From Antedon mediterranea (taxonomy: Eukaryota > Animalia > Echinodermata), in NCBI RefSeq assembly GCF_964355755.1, contig NC_092670.1, positions 15,734,795-15,798,794 on the forward strand: a DNA stretch of 64,000 bases, in the 5' to 3' direction. How positions within the stretch are numbered: position 1 is the stretch's first letter; each line of letters opens with the position of its first letter. This document shows positions 4,317 through 57,562 of the stretch, in pieces. The notes under the pieces are model-generated. The model did no database searches. It had not been told where the DNA came from and saw only the letters and a list, made by a program, of their open reading frames with translations. A program made the position numbers and the translations under genes.

Positions 4317-5511
4317 AAACGATTAGGCATATAAATCTAACTTATTGAGAACGTAATAAAGAGTTAAGAGTACAAACATACCAAGTGACGTTAATAACGT
4401 GATGCTGACGTGATCCTTTCCATCTCAAGTGTCAACGCGGTATTCGTAACAGTTTAACACGATGATCTTTTTCTTATGTAGCATCGAACTATAATTAGCA
4501 ACACGCTGGTTCTGTTTCGTTCAGGTAGATATCTTAATTTGTTCTTTTTCAACTGTACTAATTACAGACAATTTACTGCGTTTCGGTACCGTAGCCTATT
4601 GTATGCGTCAACATTGGCGGTCTCAATGTACGCCCATTACATCAAAGTGTTTTATATTTAAAAACATTATAATATTAAATATATATATTCAAAAAATATA
4701 TTTTAAAGTGAAACGATAATAGGCGTTCATCTAACTTATATTAATTGAATTGAGAACGTACAGTGTACAAACATACCAAGTGACGTTAATAACGTGATTC
4801 CTTGTGCAGTATTCGTGTAAGACACACGACGACCTTTTTCTTATAAAGCTCATCGAACCATGGAGGCATAAAAATCGAATTATAATTGGAAACACTGGTT
4901 CTGTTTTCTTCAGTTCTTTTTCAATTTTAATATTAGCCTATGCTTGGTTCCGGTTCCCACTAGAGACGCAACACAAGGACGTAACGCAACGTAAGTGAAG
5001 CTTGGTTCCCACTAGAACGTAACGCAAGGACGTAAACGCAACGCAAGCGTTTTAACCAATGACAAGCGAAGTTATAGACAGTTAGCAATCACAAGCGAAT
5101 AAGCCATCGCTTGTGATTGGTCAATTCACTTGCGTTGCGTTGCGTTGCGTCGCTAGTGGGAACCATGCTTAAGTTGACCAATCACAAGCGATGGATTATT
5201 CGAACTGTCGCTTGCCACTGGTCATGAACTCGCTTGCGATGCGTTTACGTCCTTGCGTTACGTTCTAGTGGGAACCAAGCAAGGACGTAACGCAACGCAA
5301 GTGAATTGACCAATCACAAGCGATGGCTTATTCGCTTGTGATTGCTAACTGTCTATAACTTCGCTTGTCATTGGTTAAAACGCTTGCGTTGCGTTTACGT
5401 CCTAGCGTTACGTTCTAGTGGGAACCAAGCTTGAGGGACAATTAAAGCGTTACGGTACCGTAGCCTATTGTAATGCGTCGATTGTCGACATTGGTGGTAA
5501 TGTAGGCCCAT
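4317..5511 (+). repeat. Diverged ~320-bp tandem duplication, second copy interrupted by MITE cluster
   Basis: Shared blocks GTACAAACATACCAAGTGACGTTAATAACGTGAT, CTGGTTCTGTTT and CGGTACCGTAGCCTATTGTA..GCGTC occur in 4317-4637 and again in 4711-4940 plus 5432-5511. Confidence 0.75.
4941..5431. mobile_element. Cluster of three nested/abutting copies of a ~170-bp PIF/Harbinger-like MITE
   Basis: TIR (A)GCTTGGTTCCCACTAG / CTAGTGGGAACCAAGCT. One copy (~4999-5170) sits inverted inside another (4941-4998 + 5172-5280); a third truncated copy lies at ~5279-5431. Confidence 0.8.
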
Positions 5512-15676: not shown

Positions 15677-16384
15677 CTAAGAGATTACGCAATCAGACGG
15701 TTCGCCATTGTGTTTCATCTTTGGTTTACTGCTTCTCCGAATCAGACTACGACTTCGTGTCATATCCTTGTCGGAAACTCTAAATTTGCCATCCTTATGT
15801 CTCGACTTGTATCCGTACTCACTCATCCTTCTCTTGAGCACTGGACTTAACTCTCTTGCGGCTGGGATCTTTGCAAGCTCTAGAAGCTTTTGAAAGATGT
15901 CTAGAATGCTTTGGTTCTCCTTTGCAGACACTTCTAAATGTGCACAATGCCAGTTCTCATTGATAGTTATATCGTTGACTTCTCCTTCGCCGACTCGACG
16001 ACCAATCGATATATCTAGCTTATTGCCAACTACAACTACAGGTATCTGATCATAGTTAGATCGCTGCTCTCGAATCTGTTCGTAAATCTTACGAACTTCT
16101 TCAAACGATTGACGGTCATCTATAGCGTACACAAGCAGAAAGGCATGCGCAGTTGATATAGACAATCTTCTCATTGCAGGGAATGCCATTGCTCCAGACG
16201 TGTCCAGAATATCAACCTTGATATTATGTCCATTTACAGTATATTCTCTACAATGTAAATCCTCAACAGTTTCTTTATATTTTGTTTCAAACTTATTTTG
16301 TAGAAATTGCGATATGATAGAACTTTTTCCAACTCTGCCAGCTCCAAGAACAACAACTCGGTACCGCTCATCCGAATCAGACAT
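15677..16384 (-). CDS. Ras-family small GTPase, RASD (Dexras1/Rhes)-like, 235 aa, intronless CDS
   Basis: G1 GAGRVGKS, G2 YKETVED, G3 DILDTSG followed by FPAMRRLSI (RASD/Di-Ras signature), G4 NKLD, G5 EVSAK, basic C-terminal extension, CAAX CVIS (same ending as RASD1). Likely 5'UTR splice acceptor TCTTTCAG ending at 16618. Confidence 0.93.
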   Translation of the reverse strand: MSDSDERYRVVVLGAGRVGKSSIISQFLQNKFETKYKETVEDLHCREYTVNGHNIKVDILDTSGAMAFPAMRRLSISTAHAFLLVYAIDDRQSFEEVRKIYEQIREQRSNYDQIPVVVVGNKLDISIGRRVGEGEVNDITINENWHCAHLEVSAKENQSILDIFQKLLELAKIPAARELSPVLKRRMSEYGYKSRHKDGKFRVSDKDMTRSRSLIRRSSKPKMKHNGEPSDCVIS

Positions 16385-19300
16385 GTTACTTAATAGTATT
16401 TCACGTAATGGAATTCCAGCAAAAATGAAAATGTACTGTAGTAAAACTGATGACGCAATTATAAATAAATTTGATTATTCGAAATTTATTTATTAAATGT
16501 ATTCTCACTAGCTACCAATTATAACCTCTATTGTATTTTTATCCAATCGGTATCATTGTTATTCAACAAATATGTGTTCCATTTGTCTGCTAAGCTTCAT
16601 GTGCAATCTCTTCATAGCTGAAAGACAGATCACGATTTAAGACTATTCCGTTGCTTACTATGTCGTCATGGTGATAACAACCCTACGAGAAAAACATAAA
16701 AGATTTTAAAACACTTATTCAACGTTAATTATTAGTTGACCAGCAAACAGTAATTATTTTAATCTGATCGCGCTCAGATTAATTACAAGAATTTTTAAAA
16801 TCAAATTTATAACATGAGAACGCCATTGTTGTAATTTTTGGTTGCTAGCAATCAATTCATTTCCTGCAATAAACAAAATATGATGATTAAATTTCATTAT
16901 TAAAAAATTCACTTCCGTTTCAAAGAATATATTACCAAAGTATTCAAACCTAACACCAATCATTTCAGTAGTGTTAACATAATAACAAACGTTATTATTC
17001 AAATTTATTTACGCCCGCAGTCATCGAGTACGATTACTGATGCTGTGTTACATCATAGCCAATCAAAAATTAAAAACAATGACAGCACTAATGACGAATA
17101 TGGAAAATGCTTTTAGTAGGAATCGTCCGGGTACTTGTTAGAGTGACATCATGTTGTATATTTTAAAATGTAAATTAGAAACTGTTCATAATTAATGATT
17201 GTTATCTCCAAGGCTGTTCAACCCGACCAAAAGCAGCTGCCCTTTAGAAATTCCATTTAAAATCATAAGCATGACAAAATAGATCCAGCTAGCTAATTTC
17301 AAAGTTACTCGAGCGAGTTTAAGGCCTGTAATGCTCCAGAAACTGTGGCCATTTGCCTAGCATTAAACATAATACCGTTTTTTTTTATTATGAAGGAGGT
17401 TGTATTTTGATAATGCATTTTATTTTATTGAAGGCCGTGTAATGATGTTGGATTGCATCGATATGTAAAGAAACAATTCTTAAGTTAATGGCTGCTTTAA
17501 GTTCCCCTTTAAGCAAAAGTAAAATGTTATCGTGAAAAGAAGATGAGAGACGAAATTGACGCTTCCAGCTAACGTTGCTTCTTAGTATGATCAATTTTGA
17601 TGTTTTTGACTTTCAATGGCTAAAAATATTAGATACATTCTAGGAAGCATTGTAATTCTTTTTCTACAAATTTGGCTTAAAGCATGATTAGTTTTGGTAC
17701 TAGGGAGATTGGTCAGGCTCCCATGGAGTGTGAAGCAACGCAGTCACACATGTAGTACTAAATAATCCTGAAAATTGCAGAAAATATTGAATTTTGAAAG
17801 AAAAAAAACCAACACGACGGCACTATTAGGCTAGTCCAGTACTACTTTCTGTTTCTCTCAATCAATTTGTGTCGTTATACTGTTTAGGCCTGATTTGAAG
17901 CAACAATTTAATGTTTCATAAATGAATAACTCTTAATGTGCACACGAAATTTTTATTTATCAACTTACTGTTTGTCAATTAGGTATAACATAACTTAGCG
18001 GTGATGAACTCAGATTTTACGAGTATGTAACACCTTCTGTTCATCAAACGAAACGACTATTCTGAAGAAAAGAGCCAGTTGACACCATAAAGATTCTTAT
18101 TTCTTTCTGCTAACACGCACGTAAATCTCTTTGGAACAATAAATTAATTCTCTCTATTCGATAAGAAAGTATACATCACTGAATTGAATGAAACATCACC
18201 CTTCTATTCAGAATATAAATTTTGCAAGTTCCCCGGTGTTTGTATCCATCCAGATTTATCCAGGGACAGTCTTACTTGTACCTGGCTGCTGTAGTCGCCA
18301 GTTTATCCAGGGGCGTATTAATCAATGTCTTAAGCTTTAATAGAATGCTAGGTAGAATTCCAAATTGCAATCGATGGATTAAGATATGAAATTATGTCTA
18401 AAGTTATATTTCTTCTAAAAGTAACGTTTTTAAATCATTTTTTATCACCAAATAAATAAGATGAAATTCTTTGAACATTAAAAAAAGATAAAATGATTCC
18501 TTGGTTACTGATAAACGAAAATTCAATTTCAAAGGAATTGAATGTAACTAATATTGAACGCTATAACTTCAACTTTAACTGAATAAAACCTATATATCAA
18601 GAAAAATTATGTTACTGTGGATTCGACTTAAAAGTTTGAAATGTATGTCGGCTTCAGATAATCGCATGATTGGTAATTACCGCGCGGTACTTTTTTATAA
18701 CACGCATTACATCAATCAATTTATTCGTAAATTTTGCCTCAACAGTTCACTAATCTTCACAATAAAATAGTTTTTGCCATTCGACTATAATAAAATACAT
18801 TAATAATGTAAAACATGCTGGAAGTCATGCGCGACAGACAGTGGGGATTAGAATACGATAACATTTCATGTCTCTAATGTCAAATTGTCCAAAAAAAGAA
18901 CTAGTGTGTAACGAAATTATCCGAACATGCAATGGAATAGTTCATTGCAGTCCTCTAGCGGGGACCAGTCAGGTCCACCCCTCTACCCCCTACATTATAA
19001 TATTATATATAATCATCGTATTTTAGTATGACGATAAAAACAGATTTAGTGAAAATTATTATAATTTTTTTCCCGTTTCATTTTCGGTGCTAATTATATT
19101 TTACGTGTCTAATAAAGCGTAATTTATATGCTCTCGTAAATACACACTATTGATTTGGAGATATTGTGTTCGTCTTTTTATGTATTCCTGAAAATAGAAA
19201 ATACCAAGAGTTATATCAACTCTTTCTTCTTCATAAGTAAATATGTTTCTGTTGTTTAGCTTGTCATAATAACACTAACTATTCATTTTGAAACATTACT

Positions 19301-27851: not shown

Positions 27852-30800
27852 TTACACGGACGTGTCAAGAACCATTTCTAAAAACTGAAAAACACATCAT
27901 GAATGATAAATAGAAGATAAAGCAACCAATGTATAAATTATGGGTAGACACATGTTGACTTAATTAGACATAAAACTCCTATAAATAAGTAATGGTTTTG
28001 CTGCATGTGTTAAATTATGCAAGGTATAATTATACACTGATTGTTTATAGGTTAAGAGTTCTTAAAGTTCAAAAAAAGTATTAAAATATAACTTTTACTG
28101 TACCATAATATTTCCATGTAAAATAGAGAATAATATAAAATACCCTTAAGTTATGTTCGCACTGAGCCTAGATGATCTCTATGGTTAGAGTGAACACTAC
28201 ACACATGTTTCATTATTTTTCATCCAACCTAAGAATTCGGGCTCAGTGTAAACATAGCTTAAAGAGTGACGAAAAAAAACAAAACAACAAAATGTATACA
28301 CTAACTATACTGATTCAAATCTATTATAAAGTCTGCTATGATTACTTTTACTGATTGCATAACTTTTGTAATGTCAATATACATACTGTAATTTAAAATT
28401 GAAATTTGTTTGCAAACTATACGTACCTCTTCATAATGTATTTTAATATTGCCTGATCTATTTGTATCTTTCCGCTTGAATGACTCTGTGAGTGAGTGCA
28501 GCATCACACAGCATTGGATAAAGTCATCAAATTTTATCGTATGGACATCAGTTCTGTCAAATTTTCGCATAATCAATTGACAAAAGTTCATTGACCTATA
28601 TATAATTAAATAAAAATGTTGAAAATAAATTTGGAACAAATGTAGAAATATAATACAATTATTATATATAATAACACTATAATATAAAATAAAACAAATT
28701 TAATAAAATCTAAAGTTAAGATTGATTAATTATTAAAATACTCACAAATTGTAACCAAATGTAACAAAGGCAGAGTGCAGCTCCTGTGCATCTATATTGC
28801 CAGATCTATCTTTATCAAATCTTTATATAAAAAAAATTTATTTTAATGATGGTGACAATAAAAATGGTTATGATGATTGCTATGTGATGGTAATGATAAT
28901 CTATGTTTTTTATTTCAGGGCCATAGCCACCAGTACGGTTGGTAAAATTTCAACCTGATTACATTGTAGAGGCCTTGACAACCCAGTGGCTTGAACAGAG
29001 ATTATTCCCTTTTTTTGCGAAAACCACCTTATTTCTAAATAAATCACTGTATTTAGATTGAAACTATGGTATTAGATAAGGTTGATAAATTGTATGGTTG
29101 CTTTGGAGATGGAAGGAGAAGCGCTTACCTATCAAAGCATTGTTTCCATTCTTGGATGTATTTCCACAAAGCAGAGAATTCATTAAAATCAATTGTTCCA
29201 TTTCTAAATGAAGGTACAAAATTATATATAACACTTTATTTCAGTTGGATAGTAGGATATCATGTACAATACATATTTACAACTCATGTTAAACAACATA
29301 CTGAGATTAAAGGCTGCAGAATGTGCAATGCTGCAGTAAAGTATGTAACTCATTATTGCACAAGATGCTTCGAAATAGAAATAATACTTCAATTTATCAT
29401 AGAAACATAGTAACTTTTGCAATGAAAAGAAAGCTGTCTTACAATTCATTTAGTTTTTAATGTGTTTAACCATAGAAATATTCAATCTCTATGGTTAAAC
29501 AAATAGTTTCTTCTTAAAGGATGTTGCATAGAAGGTAGTGAAAGCAATGATGTCACAATCATTGTTTCCATACAATCTGCAAGCACTTTTTTCGAATTCC
29601 CATCACCAAGTTAAGTTACAACCTTGAAATTATCATGTTAGTACGCTTACTTGTCAGTATCAAACATGCCAACCATAAGGCGGCAGGTCTCTTCATTAAA
29701 ATGGGACCAATTACCATTGATTAGAGCCTGCTGAAGCTCATTCACAGTTATGGAACCACTATGGTCAACATCCACAGCCTTTAATAACAGCAAAGTACTA
29801 GAATTAAGCAGGCAACTTAAGCACTAACAGAGTAGATTAAGCCAAGGCAATTAATAAAAGAACATGCACAGGAGGAGGGATTAAATTCAAAGCTTATTTC
29901 TACGAAGCTTCACATTTATAATTTTAAGCAATTTATCTCCCTGGTTTATTCAAGCAGTGAAGTAAATCAAATAATTGCCATAGCTTAAACCTTCAGCTCT
30001 GTCTACACTATCAAACTTTATGTGACAAAAAAAAAGATGTCATATCACTACCATATTTGGGCATATCACTACCATATTTGGGCACATATATTTTTTTGTC
30101 AAACTTGTTTGATAATATAAATATAGCTTTACTCTGTATTTGTGTAAATAGTAAATTTGTTAAAGATTTCTTCTAAAAACTGAATCAAATTAAACACTGT
30201 TTTCAAAGTGCTTTATTAAAATTTAGGCAAATAATATCATAGTTTTTGAAATCACAAATTCAATCTTTAACAAATTTACTATTATAATTAAAAAGATATT
30301 CATCTATAAGAGAGCACTTCACATTGACCAACTACATACTTATTCTTATCAAACATTCCTATCATAAGTCGACATGTCTCTTCGTTAAATCTTGACCAAT
30401 TGCCATTAACAAGAGCTTGTTGGAGCTCTTTTGTTGTGATCTGATTGCTACTATCCGCATCCACTGCCTTGGGTCATTGTGAGGGAAATGTGCATTAAAA
30501 AAGCAAGAGATGTTTCTTAATTAATTCTCATGAGTGAAAAACACAAAAGATACAAATTAAAAAACCTGTGGTTTTAATATAGTCAATGCCTACAAATAGT
30601 GATTACTTTTTCTTTGTACTTTAAACATTATATTCAGTATTAATATTAGGATTTTTTCTCCCAATGTTAGTGAATTAAAACAAAAGTTAATGTTCGTGAC
30701 TGTCAGACATTCTTACTGTAATAACACCTGTAAAACGTAATATTTTAAAAATGTTTAACACTTCCAAAGTGGCAAAAAAGAATGATTTATTGATGGATGA

Positions 30801-31522
30801 ATAGAATGACCAATTATGTAGTCACCTTAAACCAATACCATAAAGTTTCATCTGCTCCTTGTGGTGGTAGGCCAGGGTTTCCCGGCCTACCACCACCATA
30901 TCCCTGTGGGGCACCATATCCTTGTTGCGGGACACCATACCCTTGCTGATGAGGAGGGGCACCATAGCCATGCTGAGGCGGAGCACTGTAACGTTGTTGA
31001 GGGGCACCGTATGCTTGCTGTGGTGGTGGTGCTCCATATGCTTGGTGTGGTTGTTGTCCATATTGCTGTGGTGGCTGGCCATACCCACCCTAAATTTTAA
31101 AATGATTGAAAATGGTTAATAGCAACATTATCATCAAAATATTGGCAATTTATCAGCAAAGTCAACTATGCATGCAATTTAATATAGTTTCTGTTGACAT
31201 GTAGGCTGGTGGTGGTATAGGCACAGTCGAATGTGTCAAATGCATTACATATCACCCCACAGAATTTGTTTGGGTTAAAAACTGAGCGGCCGAAATAAAC
31301 GGCGGCCGAAATGCACTATGGTCGACCTTGAGTTACCTTGTAACCGCCCTACACACTGTCTAGTATAGCCTAGCTTCTGGTAGGCTAGCCCTTAACAGAT
31401 AGACAGGAGACAAGGCAGACCTACGCCTACTATAGATAGGCCTGTAAATCTATTGTTTTATTATTTGATATATTAATTACATGATTGGGGTTGTAGGCTG
31501 GATGACTGCCTCCGTAAGACAT
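27852..31522 (-). CDS. PEF1: Peflin (penta-EF-hand protein with Gly/Pro/Tyr/Gln-rich N-terminus)
   Basis: Exons with GT-AG and consistent phases: 31522-31481 (MSYGGSHPAYNPNH), 31089-30826 (GGYGQPPQQYG...LWYWFK), 30467-30340 OR 29778-29651 (EF1), 29203-29129 (NGTIDFNEFSALWKYIQEWK), 28820-28746 (FDKDRSGNIDAQEL), 28595-28427, 27884-27852 (FLEMVLDTSV*). The long N-terminus and NWSxFNEETC motif favour peflin over PDCD6. Confidence 0.92.
28149..28259. mobile_element. Small MITE in last PEF1 intron
   Basis: AGTTATGTTCGCACTGAGCC ... GGCTCAGTGTAAACATAGCT imperfect TIR with TTA/TAA flanks. Confidence 0.65.
29651..29778 (-). CDS. PEF1: PEF1 exon 3b (mutually exclusive candidate)
   Basis: 128 nt, AAG|..|GTAAGC, phase 0 to 2; AVDVDHSGSITVNELQQALINGNWSHFNEETCRLMVGMFDTD. 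Confidence 0.85.
29995..30129. mobile_element. MITE family A copy, between PEF1 exons 3a and 3b
   Basis: AGCTCTGTCTACACTATCAAACTTTATGTGACAAAA...; degenerate right TIR. Confidence 0.8.
30340..30467 (-). CDS. PEF1: PEF1 exon 3a (mutually exclusive candidate)
   Basis: 128 nt, AAG|..|GTATGT, phase 0 to 2; AVDADSSNQITTKELQQALVNGNWSRFNEETCRLMIGMFDKN. Confidence 0.85.
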
Positions 31523-36324: not shown

Positions 36325-39300
36325 TTACCATAGTATTCCCTTTGATTCCCTTTTTTTTTTTTTTTCCTTTTTGCTTTTCACTTTCTGAGATGATATGGGT
36401 TGTTTGCTTAAACCTGAAACAGTAATTTAAGAAAATTCTTTTAACAAAAAGATAGATAGATTAGACTGGTGAGACTTTGAGTGAAATTATACAACCTACT
36501 CTTTCAACTGAAAAACAAAAGTCTTACAATGTACTTACCACTTTCTCTCATCATAACACGTATATCCTCATCCTCCTGCTCTTCTCGTATACGGTCATTC
36601 TCAAGTCTATCTACCACTTCAGCCCTCTTTGTCACTACATCCACAAGTAAGTCCAATAGTCTTTGTTCCTCTACAGCATCTGCATCAGTTTTTTCATGTT
36701 CTTGCTTTAACATGATACGTCGTAGATCAAACTCAATTTCGGCATGTTTCTTTTCCAACTCCTGCGATTGTGCTCTAGATGTTGAAAAAAATATGATTAA
36801 TTGAATACATTTAAATGAACAGTGTAATAATAATAGAAATAGTGTAATGTAAAAAATTGATATTGCTGCTAAAATTGAGTAAAACTAAAAAAATATTACT
36901 ATCATATTTTTGTCAGTAGTCCTCTAGTAGTAAATTAAAGGGCGGGGCAATAAATTAAAGGGCGGGGCAATACATTTTACTGGTGGAAGAATATAAATAA
37001 TTGTTTAATTGTTGACTTACAGTGCTACAAGTTCACCTTCTCTTCTTACTAACTGGTTTTTATTGTTGACAAGTTCAAACCATTCAATTAACAAGCCCTC
37101 ATCATTAGCACCATCTTCTATGAAAAAGAATCAATTAATATTGAGATAGGAACATGCAATATAACATGCAATAGAACATCATAGAATGTTTACAGCTTTG
37201 TTTACATTATCAAACTAGTTTGACAAAAATAATGTCATGTTTCCAAATATGGTAGTGATGTGATTGTGTCCATTATGGGAACACCAAATTTTCTTGTCAC
37301 ATAAAATGTGTTAGTGTAAAAAGAAGAAAGAAAGGGAGAAATAATTAAAATATGTATGAGGACATTAAATGGAGCAAAGGAGAAGAGAGTAGGGAAAGTT
37401 AAAGGAGAAAAAATAGAGAAAGGGAGAGTTACAAAGACACAAGAGAAGAAAAGGATTACTAAGCATATGCAAAACCTAAACAAGTGAGTTGGATGTTAAA
37501 GGTGTTTTTATTTATTTACAAAAATCCCCATGCTATGTAAAGGAAGTAACAACTTCCTAAACAATGCATATACAGTATTTGACTCATATATTTGTTGACA
37601 TTCTATAATTAATACATATTTTAAATTAAAAATACAAGGTCAAATTGAATTATAATCAGTGAGCTGAGCTAGTCAATTGATGAAACGTTTGTAATGAATC
37701 AATTTTTTGTTATTGTTTTGTTTAATTTGTTGTGTCATTTATTTTTCACCACTTAATTTTGTTGTCGTATTTAATGTAATTAGTTGTTCTCACCATTCAT
37801 TTGTTCTCTTAATTTTTCTTCTAGCATAACACCTTTCCTTTCCATATCATTTTGTTTGATTTCGATTTCTTTTAACTCTCGTTGTATGACAAGCGTATCA
37901 ACATGGTGTTTTTCAACCTAAAACAAAAGCAGGGTTTCCAATTAAAGCATATATTTTAAAATTTAAATATCAATTATCAATCAACATCATAGTATTGAAA
38001 GTGAAATGATAAGTAACATTTATTTTTTAAGTTGTTTAAGCCAAATTACTACTATGATTATTTCCATACTAAAAAATGTAATCTTAAGATACTTTGTGGT
38101 TAGAATAAATACAATATTATTTAGGTGGTGACATATCTGAACATGTATGCATTGCAAGATAAGAACACAAGGAAATGAAACTATAGGAGAAAACAGATTG
38201 CCTGGAAAATATGACAGTGACCGGAAAAGGTGGTAACCAGAGAGAGGAAACAAGTTTTAAAATGAGTAGAAAGATGGGTGGATTAAGGAAATTGAGCTGA
38301 TAAACTATGATTTATAAATCCGTGTTTACACTATCAAACTTTATGTGACAACAAAATGTGATGTGTCCATATATGGACATGATGAAGTCATATCACTACC
38401 ATGTAAGCATATCACTACCATATTTAAGCATATCACTACCATATTTAGGCACATCACACTTATTTTGTCAAACTAGTTTGATAGTGTAGACAGAGCTTTA
38501 GGATGTGGATTTTACTAAGGTTTTTATAGTTCAATGTCGTACCTCTCTTTTTATCAGTGGGGGTGGAGGCGCTTTGAAAGATTTGCACGATTTCCTCTTT
38601 GACATTTCCTGAAAAGAAACAAGTTGAGAATAATCAGAGACATATTTTAATAGTTGTCTCAGGAATAATTAAAAAAGGAAACAAATACGAAAGTAATCAG
38701 ATAAACTATTTCCAAAATACAATACTTACTGGTGTGCCAATTTTGGGGGAGTTTGCTCCATTTTTCTTTGAACGCAGAACACTGAAAATAAGAGTAAACA
38801 ATTGATTGAAAATGCTAAACAATACAATAGAATAGAGAATAAGACGATGGAGATATGCCAAAAAATTTCGTCTCTCGTGCTGTTCTGTGTGTATTCTTTG
38901 CAAGAAGTTTTATTCCCATTAACCTGTCCTTTCACCAACATTTCGAATTAAGATAGTAATCAACTTTACCTTGGTGATTTGTGTCCTGAAACCATCTTCA
39001 ACTGTACTTTCTGAAACTCCAACTGTCCGTTATTTCCAGCAGGCGGTGGTGGGGGCGCTTTGCGATCTTTCTTCCTTGTTTGTCTCGGAGGAGGGGTTAA
39101 ATCGGCTTTAACGCTTGGTGAATGGCTTGGAGGTTGACTGGGACGTGGAGGTGCACGTCGTTTCTTTTGTTTTAACGTTGATCGATCACGCTGCATTTCT
39201 TTGAGAATTTCTGTTCTACTTTTCACTGAGTATGAGACACCAGAATTTTCTTGTGTTTTCGAAGGTGGTGTTCGTGGTGGGTAGTTGAAATCAGACTTAT

Positions 39301-42300
39301 TTACTGGTGATCCAGTAAAGGGATTTACATCCTCACCGTTTGCTTCCTCATCATTAAATGGATTCATAGTTTCATCATAGTCTTCATCGGTATCAACTTC
39401 TCCAAATGGGTTATCTCCGGAATAGTCTGAATCTTCAGAATCGGCAAAAGGATTTTTATCATCATCATAAACTTCTTCTTGATCTGGTTGAGGAGAAACC
39501 TCAATTTCTGTTTTTGCGTTGTTTACAATTGCAATATCTTCGCTTCCATTGTCTGCTTTTAGTACTAGCTCATCTTTATCTTTCTCTGAATTCTTTTCAT
39601 CTACTTTTCCTTTTTCCTCATTGTCTGACTTTCCTTTTTCATCAACCTCTAAGCCTTCCATTTCATCTTTGTCCTTTTCATTGTCTTTCTCAATCTCTTT
39701 CTTTTTATTCTCTTCTATTTGCTGTGTCTGTGTTTTTTCCAAATTCTCACTACTCCCTTCATTAACTTCTTTTGTCCTATTTGTTAACTTCTCATTATCT
39801 ATTACATCTGTTTCAATCTTCAATTTTGCATCATTGTTCACATCTTTATGTGCATTTTCTTCACTTTGATCACTTTGAGATGGATCAACCTTTCGAGCTG
39901 AAGCTGGAGATTTTAATCCCGTCTTTTTTCTGGGTGGAGGTTCTAAACTACCACTACTAACTGAATTTGATTTACTTGAAGAATCATGTGAACTAATTGA
40001 TGGTGATTTACTGCCAAGAGATGGAGTCAATATTTCTTTACTGGAAGTCAAGTAATCACGACTCGATTCTGAACTTAAACTGTCTTTACTACCATAGCTT
40101 GAGGAATCACTTCTAACAGCTGCCAATGATTTCATCAGACCTTTTCTTGCGTCTTCTTCACCTTGAAATCTTGCACGTGATGTCTGAGCAGCTAAAAGAT
40201 GAGGATGTAGTCCAGCTGCAGGGAGCTTTACTCCTCCAAATGGTTTTGGAGATAATTCTGGTTTATCTGACAAATCTGGTTTAATTTTTCGACGTGGAAT
40301 CTTTGGCGACAACTTCTGGTTAGGGATCAAATCTATTCTATTTGCCCAAGGATCATTACTTTCTCTTTCAGGTTCTGTGGCAACTTTAACTGGTGGTTTC
40401 TTCTTGATCTCTGCTGGTTCCCCAGCGGTATGAGTTTCCCAAATAGTATCTCCACCAACGCCCTCCGATTTCGGAGCAGTTTTTGCAGTTGCTCTTTCTG
40501 AAATGTTTGCTCGTATTTTCCAGATATCATTGCTGTGGTGAAGACATTCAAACTCGCGAGAGTCTCTTTTTTTCTTATACGTTCCAGAACGTAGGGTCGC
40601 TTGACATGTAGAACACTTGAAGCAGGCTCTGTGGAATAGTTTTCCCTCAATCACCAACCGCTCCATTAAATAAACTTTTTTCCCACACGAAATACATTTA
40701 TCACCCATAATTGCTATCTTGCGTGGTGGCTCACTTGCATCCTATAATTACAAAATATTTCCCTTCATTAATATTACACAGTGGAATTTATTTAAACACT
40801 TATAATAATGGTGGAATGTCTCTTTAAAGCTCTGTCTACACTATCAAACTAGTCAATATCAAACAAAAAAAGTGTGATGTGCTCAAATATGGTAGTGATA
40901 TGCTCAAACTCAAATACGGTAGTGATATGCTCAAATATGGTAACGATATCATGTCCATATGGGCACATCACATTTTTTTGTCACATAAAGTTTGATAGTG
41001 TTGACAAGGCTTAAGAGATTGAAGTGGATAATAAATTAATATTTATTATCTGAATTTTAAAAAAAACCTGATGAATCTATTCTCCGAGATTGAAGTGGAT
41101 TATTAAACGAATGTGCCTCACAGCATACAAATGCATTTATACAGGCTTCTTTGTTCTTCTCTTCCTTTGTTTCATAGTTACCAAATGAAGAAGAGTACAC
41201 AGTATAATTCCCAGTCCCTCCCACCAACTCTTCAATAAACAAATTAATCAAAATGTGTCTCACCTTGGGCAGAGTTTTCTCTCTCTTTTTCCCCCCAATG
41301 TGGCCAATCCCAGATCCTAAATAAAGGGGGAAAAGAGGTTAATAGTTTAATGCAATGAGTATACTATGGGAGGAATCACACAGAATCACATAGTGTGTGT
41401 GATGTGCAACATGGAATGCATTTCAGATAAAGTACAACTAAAACAGCAGATTCTTTTAAAACTATAATTTTTAATAAAATATTATTTTGAATGTCAGCAG
41501 TGCATTGTTTATCATTAGGGCCAATTTACACAGACGAGCGGCAACAGTAAGCGAGAAAAACATGTAGCTTGTCCCATACATTACAGAATCTGCATATATC
41601 CTGAGCGGGTTTCCGCTCGACCGATCCACGTTTTGTGTAAATAGATTTTGGTTTTCCGCTTACCGTCACCGCTCGTCTGTGTAAATTGGTTTTTATGCTG
41701 CCAGAATGTGCTGTTCTACAGTACAGGTATGTCTACTGCTGCTAACTCCACTAAGTTAAATACAACCAATCCTCTCACCAACCAACCTGTTTTTTCTGAG
41801 CCTTACTAATACAAAGTAGTATACGTTTCCAAACTTTTAAGCTCCTAGCTGTTTAGTTTGACCTTGCAAATGCTTGTTTTAAATGTCATTGTCAACTTTA
41901 AAAAATTGTGTACCAGACCTGGCCACAATTAACTTCAATTCACAATGCAATATTTAATGTTATAGTAATTGCTTTAAAAATATAAAAATAAAATATATGT
42001 TATATGCTGGCTAACTATGCAGTATACTTTACTGTAAACTACTTTATGATTTTCAATTGATTTGTTTAATGTCATTGTCAAATAAAATGATTACATTAGA
42101 AAAAGTTATTATCCTTTCAAATTAAATTGATAATTGAAATATACAAGTAAATAAAATTAATACAAAGTAGCATAAATTAAATAATGTTGTTAGGAATATT
42201 AACAATGATTATAAATATAATGCTAAATAGAAAATTCAGGTTGAGAATATTTAAATTATATCATGAAACTAAATATCTAGACTGTATGTTATATGTTGCA

Positions 42301-56805: not shown

Positions 56806-57562
56806 TTCTATATCCTTTGCTTTACTGTGCTTTGATTTGATAAGCAAGTTTGGTTGCCCCGCCCCCATATGCTGCCTACTAAATTAGGATTCCCTAGCTT
56901 TTCTATAAAAATTGAAGTACCCACAATGCACGTTATACGGAAGTCATAGTCTTGTAAAATACAGACACAATAGTTTTTATCGTATTGTTTTCATTTAAAT
57001 ATCACTAAGATTGTCTTAAACTACAAACAACTAAAATTAGTGAAGGTATGCAAGTGTTTCTAAATATTTATTACTGGTAGTATTAATACAATTTGGATTA
57101 TATCATTTTCCAGAAAGGTAGAAAAAAACATAAAATAGTTGAGAATTCTCAACTAGCCAGGATGGTATAGGAAATATAGCTCCAATCGAGAGCTATATTT
57201 CCTATACCATCCTGGCTAGTTGAGAATTCTCAACTATTTTATGTTTTTTTCTACCTTTCTGGAAAATGATATAATCCAAATTGTATTAATACTACCAGTA
57301 GTAAACATTTAGAAACACTTGCATACGTTCACTAATTTTAGTTGTTTGTAGTTTAAGACAATCTTAGTGATATTTAAATGAAAACAATACCATAAAAACT
57401 ATTGTGTCTGTATTTTACAAGACTATGACTTCCGTATAACGTGCATTGTGGGTACTTCAATTTTTATAGAAAAGCTAGGGAATCCTAATTTAGTAGGTAG
57501 CATATGGGGGCGGGGCAACCAAACTTGCTTATCAAATCAAAGCACAGTAAAGCAAAGGATAA

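Follow-up and report, generated by a model that had tools for sequence, protein, structure and literature searches.

A tandem pair of first-EF-hand exons, only one of which at a time keeps the reading frame, in a penta-EF-hand gene of the crinoid Antedon mediterranea

A penta-EF-hand (PEF) gene of Antedon mediterranea carries two versions of the exon that encodes its first calcium site, EF1, and the beginning of the EF2 loop. As read from the sequence, the two are tandem duplicates, and the reading frame is preserved only when exactly one of them is included. We propose, with a probability of roughly 0.58, that the gene makes two forms in which the front pair of calcium sites would differ in affinity or kinetics, and not in whether calcium is bound. 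The gene lies in the window, by which we mean the whole 64-kb stretch of DNA that was analyzed, where it occupies the minus strand and has seven exons with two candidates for exon 3, termed A and B:

31481..31522, minus strand: coding exon 1 (ATG, 14 codons) with a GT donor; matches RefSeq proteins P0220/P0154
30826..31089, minus strand: exon 2, a Gly/Pro/Gln/Tyr-rich repeat tail with internal repeats, followed by the first helix of EF1; joined to exon A in run X1 (see below)
30340..30467, minus strand: exon A, 128 nt, EF1 loop with Asn6 and EF2 loop start with Asn3; RefSeq isoform X1, spliced on both sides in run X1
29651..29778, minus strand: exon B, 128 nt, EF1 loop with Gly6 and EF2 loop start with Asp3; RefSeq isoform X2, in run X1 only within an unspliced contig
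29129..29203, minus strand: exon 4 (E4), 75 nt, remainder of EF2; joined from exon A
28746..28820, minus strand: exon 5, 75 nt, EF3
28427..28595, minus strand: exon 6, 169 nt, EF4 and EF5; covered by a spliced contig of run X1
27852..27884, minus strand: coding part of exon 7, last helix and stop; shares the run X1 contig with exon 6
29991..30119, no strand assigned: MITE-like, very high-copy interspersed repeat with inverted ends in the A–B intron; recognized by read depth and loose ends
30147..30283, no strand assigned: 22-bp perfect inverted repeat in the A–B intron (arms 30147-30168 and 30262-30283)

Both exon 3 candidates are open in frame, are flanked by AG and GT, and run from phase 0 to phase 2. 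In-silico splicing with either A or B alone gives a 261-aa protein; inclusion of both leads to a stop at codon 155 and omission of both to a stop at codon 107. The product containing A is letter-for-letter the RefSeq Antedon mediterranea 'sorcin-like' isoform X1 (XP_071960244.1) and that containing B is isoform X2 (XP_071960253.1), both already present in RefSeq as automatic models. The preliminary description of this DNA had reported two intact, homologous 128-nt exons of equal phase, a frameshift when both or neither are included, and the sequences of the two calcium loops, and all of these features are borne out by the splice sites, frames, early stops and translations. No third copy of the exon was found within the window.

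The intron between A and B is 561 nt long and carries a transposon-like insert. The MITE-like repeat within it contains an internal 21-nt tandem duplication and has several more copies in the window. The 22-bp inverted repeat begins 56 nt past the exon A donor and has no second copy in the window; perfect inverted repeats like it are common there, and the hairpin region as a whole folds no better than shuffled sequence (z -0.94). Elsewhere in the window, long perfect inverted repeats at 4998-5432 and 56982-57390, with arms of 115 and 111 nt, are probably foldback or MITE elements. The neighboring genes include a long exon with a LIM domain at its start (38969-40741, minus strand) and a Ras-family GTPase reading frame (15680-16474, minus strand).

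A and B match at 88 of 128 positions, compared with a mean of 36 and a 99.9th percentile of 54 for random pairs of 128-nt segments from the window, and only 3 of 199,155 such pairs reach 88 matches. Twenty-five of the 40 differing nucleotides fall at third codon positions, and the 42 full codons divide into 15 that are identical, 16 with silent changes and 11 with residue changes. The resulting dN is ∼0.2, with a dS of 2.3 (LWL85) or at saturation (NG86). By this measure both exons are under purifying selection, in agreement with the earlier remark that synonymous differences abound while the protein sequence is conserved. The similarity ends a few bases beyond the exon borders (a 134-nt repeat in all), and the 100-nt flanks of A and B are no more alike than shuffles. 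Because the introns resemble one another only within a few bases of the exons, the duplication is old.

Paired forms also occur in relatives, as the preliminary description had asked, although here the evidence consists of predicted proteins and the tandem exons are deduced from the position of the differences. We examined 30 protein clusters, chosen for 'isoform' names or several members and not at random. In nine of them, covering 11 species, same-length predicted isoforms differ only inside the codons of this exon: two crinoids (Antedon and Anneissia), four sea urchins (Diadema setosum, Lytechinus pictus, L. variegatus and, in an older annotation, Strongylocentrotus) and five oysters (Ostrea edulis, two Saccostrea, Magallana gigas and M. 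angulata). Crassostrea virginica has both types in separate clusters with a few additional differences. No pair of this kind was present in the clusters from starfish, brittle star, sea cucumber, hemichordates, amphioxus, tunicate, other molluscs, cnidarians or sponge, an absence that may reflect annotation. Isoforms that differ elsewhere than in the exon occur in hemichordates, sponge, horseshoe crab, clams, whelk, nemertean, hydrozoans, tunicate and amphioxus. In a whelk and two clams (P0065/P0142, P0072/P0143, P0048/P0148, P0182/P0225), isoforms of this gene diverge solely over their final 5-13 residues, which suggests alternative terminal exons, possibly duplicated ones, within the EF5 dimer helix. 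Just after the exon, inside the EF2 loop, hemichordate isoforms differ at one residue and tunicate isoforms at nine (P0049/P0126, P0052/P0127, P0247/P0248), which may represent another splicing route to altering the same site.

Of the 11 residue changes between the Antedon exons, 6 fall in the 12-residue EF1 loop. A and B agree at positions 1, 3, 5, 9 and 12 of this loop, and their differences in it comprise the replacement of Gly6 by Asn in A and changes at non-ligand or backbone-ligand positions only. Asn is the residue that best tolerates the backbone angle at loop position 6. At EF2 position 3, A has Asn and B has Asp. Unlike those of ALG-2 and vertebrate peflin, the EF2 loop of the Antedon protein looks canonical, so the exon bears on both members of the front pair of sites. 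Gly6 is found in 255 of 281 homologues (a redundant set), in 23 of 26 single-form orthologues and in 119 of 120 vertebrate peflins. Among the 26 exceptions in the set of 281, 10 proteins are unnamed or come from outside the echinoderms. Every one of the six echinoderm pairs has a single exon without Gly6 (with Asn, His or Gln instead), and that exon is the less acidic by 1 to 4 charges, an asymmetry that represents at most two independent events; oyster pairs have Gly6 in both exons. Gly6 is usual but not indispensable, since an EF-hand without it binds calcium in NOX5, where the loop is of a different type (PMC7317449).

Because the side-chain ligands of EF1 and most of the partner pocket are the same in both exons, tuning of the calcium sites is likelier than an on/off or a partner switch. 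The preliminary description had put forward two isoforms with different calcium sensing, citing a canonical Gly6 loop and its Asn6 counterpart. The Gly6/Asn6 and EF2 Asp/Asn differences stand, but a contrast of a canonical with a broken loop is weakened by the identical EF1 ligand positions. In the mechanism we favor, the exons would set the affinity or kinetics of the EF1–EF2 pair, with the Gly6, more acidic B probably being the tighter binder. A, which lacks Gly6 and is less acidic, would be the common form, and B would be minor or restricted to certain tissues or stages. By analogy with ALG-2, where EF1 plays this part, the consequence may be a shifted threshold for calcium-dependent partner binding; the ALG-2 EF1 mutant E47A loses binding to Sec31A and ALIX (PMC4346919).

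An alternative that we regard as unlikely is that both exons are used, but that their purpose is to present a different protein surface for contact with a partner or membrane. Exon codons 17, 29 and 41, which lie outside the loop, differ recurrently, in 10 to 12 of the 12 pairs. Oyster pairs retain Gly6 but show changes at positions of this kind, and the net charge of paired exons differs by up to 4. The exon also encodes seven residues equivalent to Pocket 3, as mapped in ALG-2 (PMC4346919). Six of these seven are identical between A and B, however, and the seventh is a Val/Ile exchange, while codons 17, 29 and 41 vary among single-form orthologues as well. The pocket comparison likewise weakens the earlier suggestion that the isoforms differ in partner binding.

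We also consider it improbable that the two exons, although used in different tissues or stages, are functionally interchangeable, each being needed in its own splicing context while its differences are tolerated drift. Most of the positions at which the isoforms differ also vary among single-form orthologues, as drift would give. A and B share 31 of 42 residues, about as many as either shares with single-form orthologues (33-34 of 42), and single-form genes of limpets, sea slug, tunicate and sea cucumber tolerate a non-Gly residue at position 6. Drift of this kind does not readily account for the retention of one non-Gly, less acidic exon in crinoids and across sea-urchin families.

Splicing was examined in run X1, a single sample available as assembled contigs, which is not recorded as RNA but is RNA-like by its spliced joints. 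Two of the four junctions proposed in the preliminary description are present, namely exon 2 (E2) to A at a depth of 129 and A to E4, skipping B, at a depth of 134. The other two, E2 to B and B to E4, do not appear among the contigs of this one sample, and contig assembly drops rare variants; exon A use is thus shown, but exon B non-use is not. Exon B is found in run X1 only in an 848-nt unspliced contig at a depth of 18, and the introns neighboring this contig are also represented by unspliced contigs, with depths of 9 and 16. Unspliced contigs cover the three introns around A and B (29174-30845), possibly as a result of slow cassette splicing or of DNA carry-over. Exon 1 and some introns have no cover in the run, which shows nothing about their use. 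Since only A is seen spliced in run X1, the case for use of B is made by the RefSeq models and by conservation. That the main form in this run is the non-Gly A is contrary to the naive expectation that the canonical loop should dominate. The non-Gly type is likewise the only one found in Diadema antillarum, in the current Strongylocentrotus RefSeq model and in 4 of 4 sea-cucumber cluster members. In the Pacific-oyster cluster, all nine transcript-assembly-only members that cover the exon are of one type (among the 15 of 26 members listed).

The splicing data raise the question of whether B is unspliced in Antedon, a silent relic that gene predictors still join to its neighbors. Consistent with this account, no joint to B occurs in run X1 and an upstream AG lies only 21 nt before its acceptor. 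We nevertheless judge it very unlikely, because B is intact with both splice sites although its synonymous sites are saturated relative to A, is identical to Anneissia X1 at 35 of 42 residues with a short branch, and shows no sequence difference between run X1 and the window. An assembly artefact, in which two haplotypes or paralogous genes were merged, can for practical purposes be dismissed: among the contigs listed none spans A and B, all breaking at the intervening repeat, but synonymous saturation excludes alleles, the joint from A to E4 passes over B, a contig from a second sample carries B and E4 as one continuous stretch, and Anneissia has the orthologous pair.

How the choice between A and B might be enforced was considered at the level of the introns. 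Docking and selector RNA pairing was sought among the three introns, and the best duplexes were no stronger than those in 20 shuffles. A distant branch point was rejected because the AG-free zone of B is only 21 nt. OGDH, in which exclusivity depends on a distant branch point in a short intron (PMC9177970), differs from the Antedon gene in this respect; a 561-nt intron with a transposon-like insert, together with so short an AG-free zone, makes an OGDH-type mechanism unlikely. Transcripts with a frameshift and an early stop are subject to decay. The default expectation is a regulated choice of one exon, with transcripts containing both or neither presumably being removed by nonsense-mediated decay.

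The gene had been called peflin in the preliminary description and is labeled 'sorcin-like' in RefSeq. The structure model of isoform A contains an eight-helix PEF domain (pLDDT 94-95 over residues 101-120), and model and sequence together place five EF-hands in eight helices behind a Gly/Pro-rich tail, as defines the penta-EF-hand family. The nearest solved structures are those of ALG-2 (TM 0.91 on target). We built two PEF-domain trees from 53 and 35 rows picked from several hundred proteins; the ALG-2 and sorcin rows were identified by structure-bank matches, the labels 'insect', 'copepod', 'fungus' and 'ALG2inv', given to rows of unnamed proteins, are guesses, and the root relies on rows taken as fungal. 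Vertebrate PEF1 groups in both trees with a second invertebrate paralog (RefSeq 'peflin-like', from clam, scallop and sea slug; support 100/97 and 97/97), which makes 'peflin' a likely wrong orthology, even though a forced clade of the Antedon gene with PEF1 is not rejected (AU p 0.195). The gene is therefore probably not the ortholog of vertebrate peflin. A forced clade with sorcin is not rejected (AU p 0.33), though neither tree supports this grouping; a forced clade with ALG-2 is not rejected either (AU p 0.119), but the ALG-2 clade itself (98/98 and 99/97) excludes the Antedon gene. The gene falls instead in a separate, slowly evolving and not necessarily monophyletic set, whose members range from sponges as far as amphioxus and tunicates. 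At genomic loci of the other paralog, the second invertebrate one (L044, L048, L056, L066, L069-L073, L076), an intron interrupts this region at a different position, after a MIG motif, which provides a gene-structure marker separating the two invertebrate PEF paralogs.

The protein shares with vertebrate peflin a long Gly/Pro/Tyr-rich N-terminal tail, a group-I-type EF1 and 44-48% identity in the PEF domain, but the EF2 loop of vertebrate peflin commonly ends in Gly where the Antedon protein has Glu. The PEF domain is 43% identical to that of sorcin, although the structure model fits ALG-2 better. The likeness to ALG-2 lies in the PEF fold, whereas the position of the Arg125 switch is occupied by Asn.

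The age of the duplication can be approached through trees of the exon itself. Antedon B and Anneissia X1 group in both exon trees (100/98 and 98/93), so the duplication predates the split between these genera; a grouping of Antedon A with Anneissia X2 has support in only one of the two trees (97/82). Among sea urchins, Diadema and the camarodonts come together for the X1 exons in both trees and for the X2 exons in the first alone, and the X1 exons of oysters form a group in each tree. Eight groupings that bear on a single or a repeated origin were weakly present or unrejected in the 42-column exon tree (p 0.16 to 0.45), among which crinoid A with urchin X1 appears at 38/49, and the 42 columns are compatible with one or several origins across classes. 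Because other molluscs and hemichordates show one form, oysters would most simply have duplicated the exon independently. In a metagenome scan, two exon copies were found in 0 of the 80 loci kept from 161 confirmed, none of which could be tied to an echinoderm or an oyster. Six of the 15 examined metagenome genomic loci (L002, L018, L034, L036, L054 and L065, containing two near-duplicate pairs) span both flanking exons and have one copy with the same 128-nt borders. Since these marine genomic contigs share the borders, a single copy so delimited is likely to be ancestral.

Taken together, these data admit a broader reading that we offer tentatively and, as a whole, consider possible but doubtful. 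A single duplication, in the common ancestor of present-day echinoderms, would have persisted through the divergence of the classes. The non-Gly, lower-affinity EF1 would serve as the everyday form and the canonical loop would be used in particular cells, and oysters would have duplicated the same exon independently. The host gene would represent a third, unstudied branch of peflin/ALG-2-like sensors that uses splicing to set its calcium threshold. This branch would be widespread, from sponges as far as tunicates, and absent or transformed in vertebrates.

Duplicated, exclusive calcium-site exons are already known from other families. In alpha-actinin (ACTN1/ACTN4), tandem-duplicated mutually exclusive exons alter an EF-hand (PMC9741552, PMC9177970), only one of the two exons keeps calcium binding (PMC9741552), and this splicing is reported as limited to chordates (PMC9177970). 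The Antedon gene resembles alpha-actinin in the exclusive duplicated EF-hand exons, but it belongs to another family and has the EF1 side-chain ligands in both exons, which makes a calcium on/off switch of the actinin type the less likely reading. Duplicated exons giving isoforms with a different calcium response have likewise been described for OGDH (exons 4a/4b; PMC9177970) and the P/Q-type calcium channel (PMC7969005), and convergent exon duplication in orthologous genes is common (PMC9177970, PMC9741552). Within the PEF family, a splice form of ALG-2 (PDCD6) without Gly121-Phe122 has changed calcium affinity and partner binding (PMC5037681, PMC4346919), but it arises from an alternative donor site and affects Pocket 2, whereas the Antedon forms arise from a duplicated exon. 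It is the only PEF splice variant in the PEF review consulted (PMC5037681). Searches of the open-access literature, with survey supplements limited to that of PMC5703972, yielded no report of this exon pair or gene lineage. In a paper on Esrp splicing, a whole-word search of the text and 6 supplementary files, by family name rather than by sea-urchin gene identifier, did not find the gene family named. As far as searched, such exons are new in the PEF family.

The mechanism itself is therefore not new, and the functional difference between the isoforms may be small. Splicing-based switching of EF-hands, so far described for alpha-actinin and a small number of other vertebrate genes, would nonetheless extend to the PEF family and beyond the chordates, and echinoderms and oysters have apparently duplicated the same exon. 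With the rest of the protein identical, the isoforms would offer a natural paired test of the effects of loop position 6 and loop charge. Many invertebrate genes that now carry the names peflin, sorcin-like or PDCD6-like may be members of a distinct lineage that has yet to be studied.
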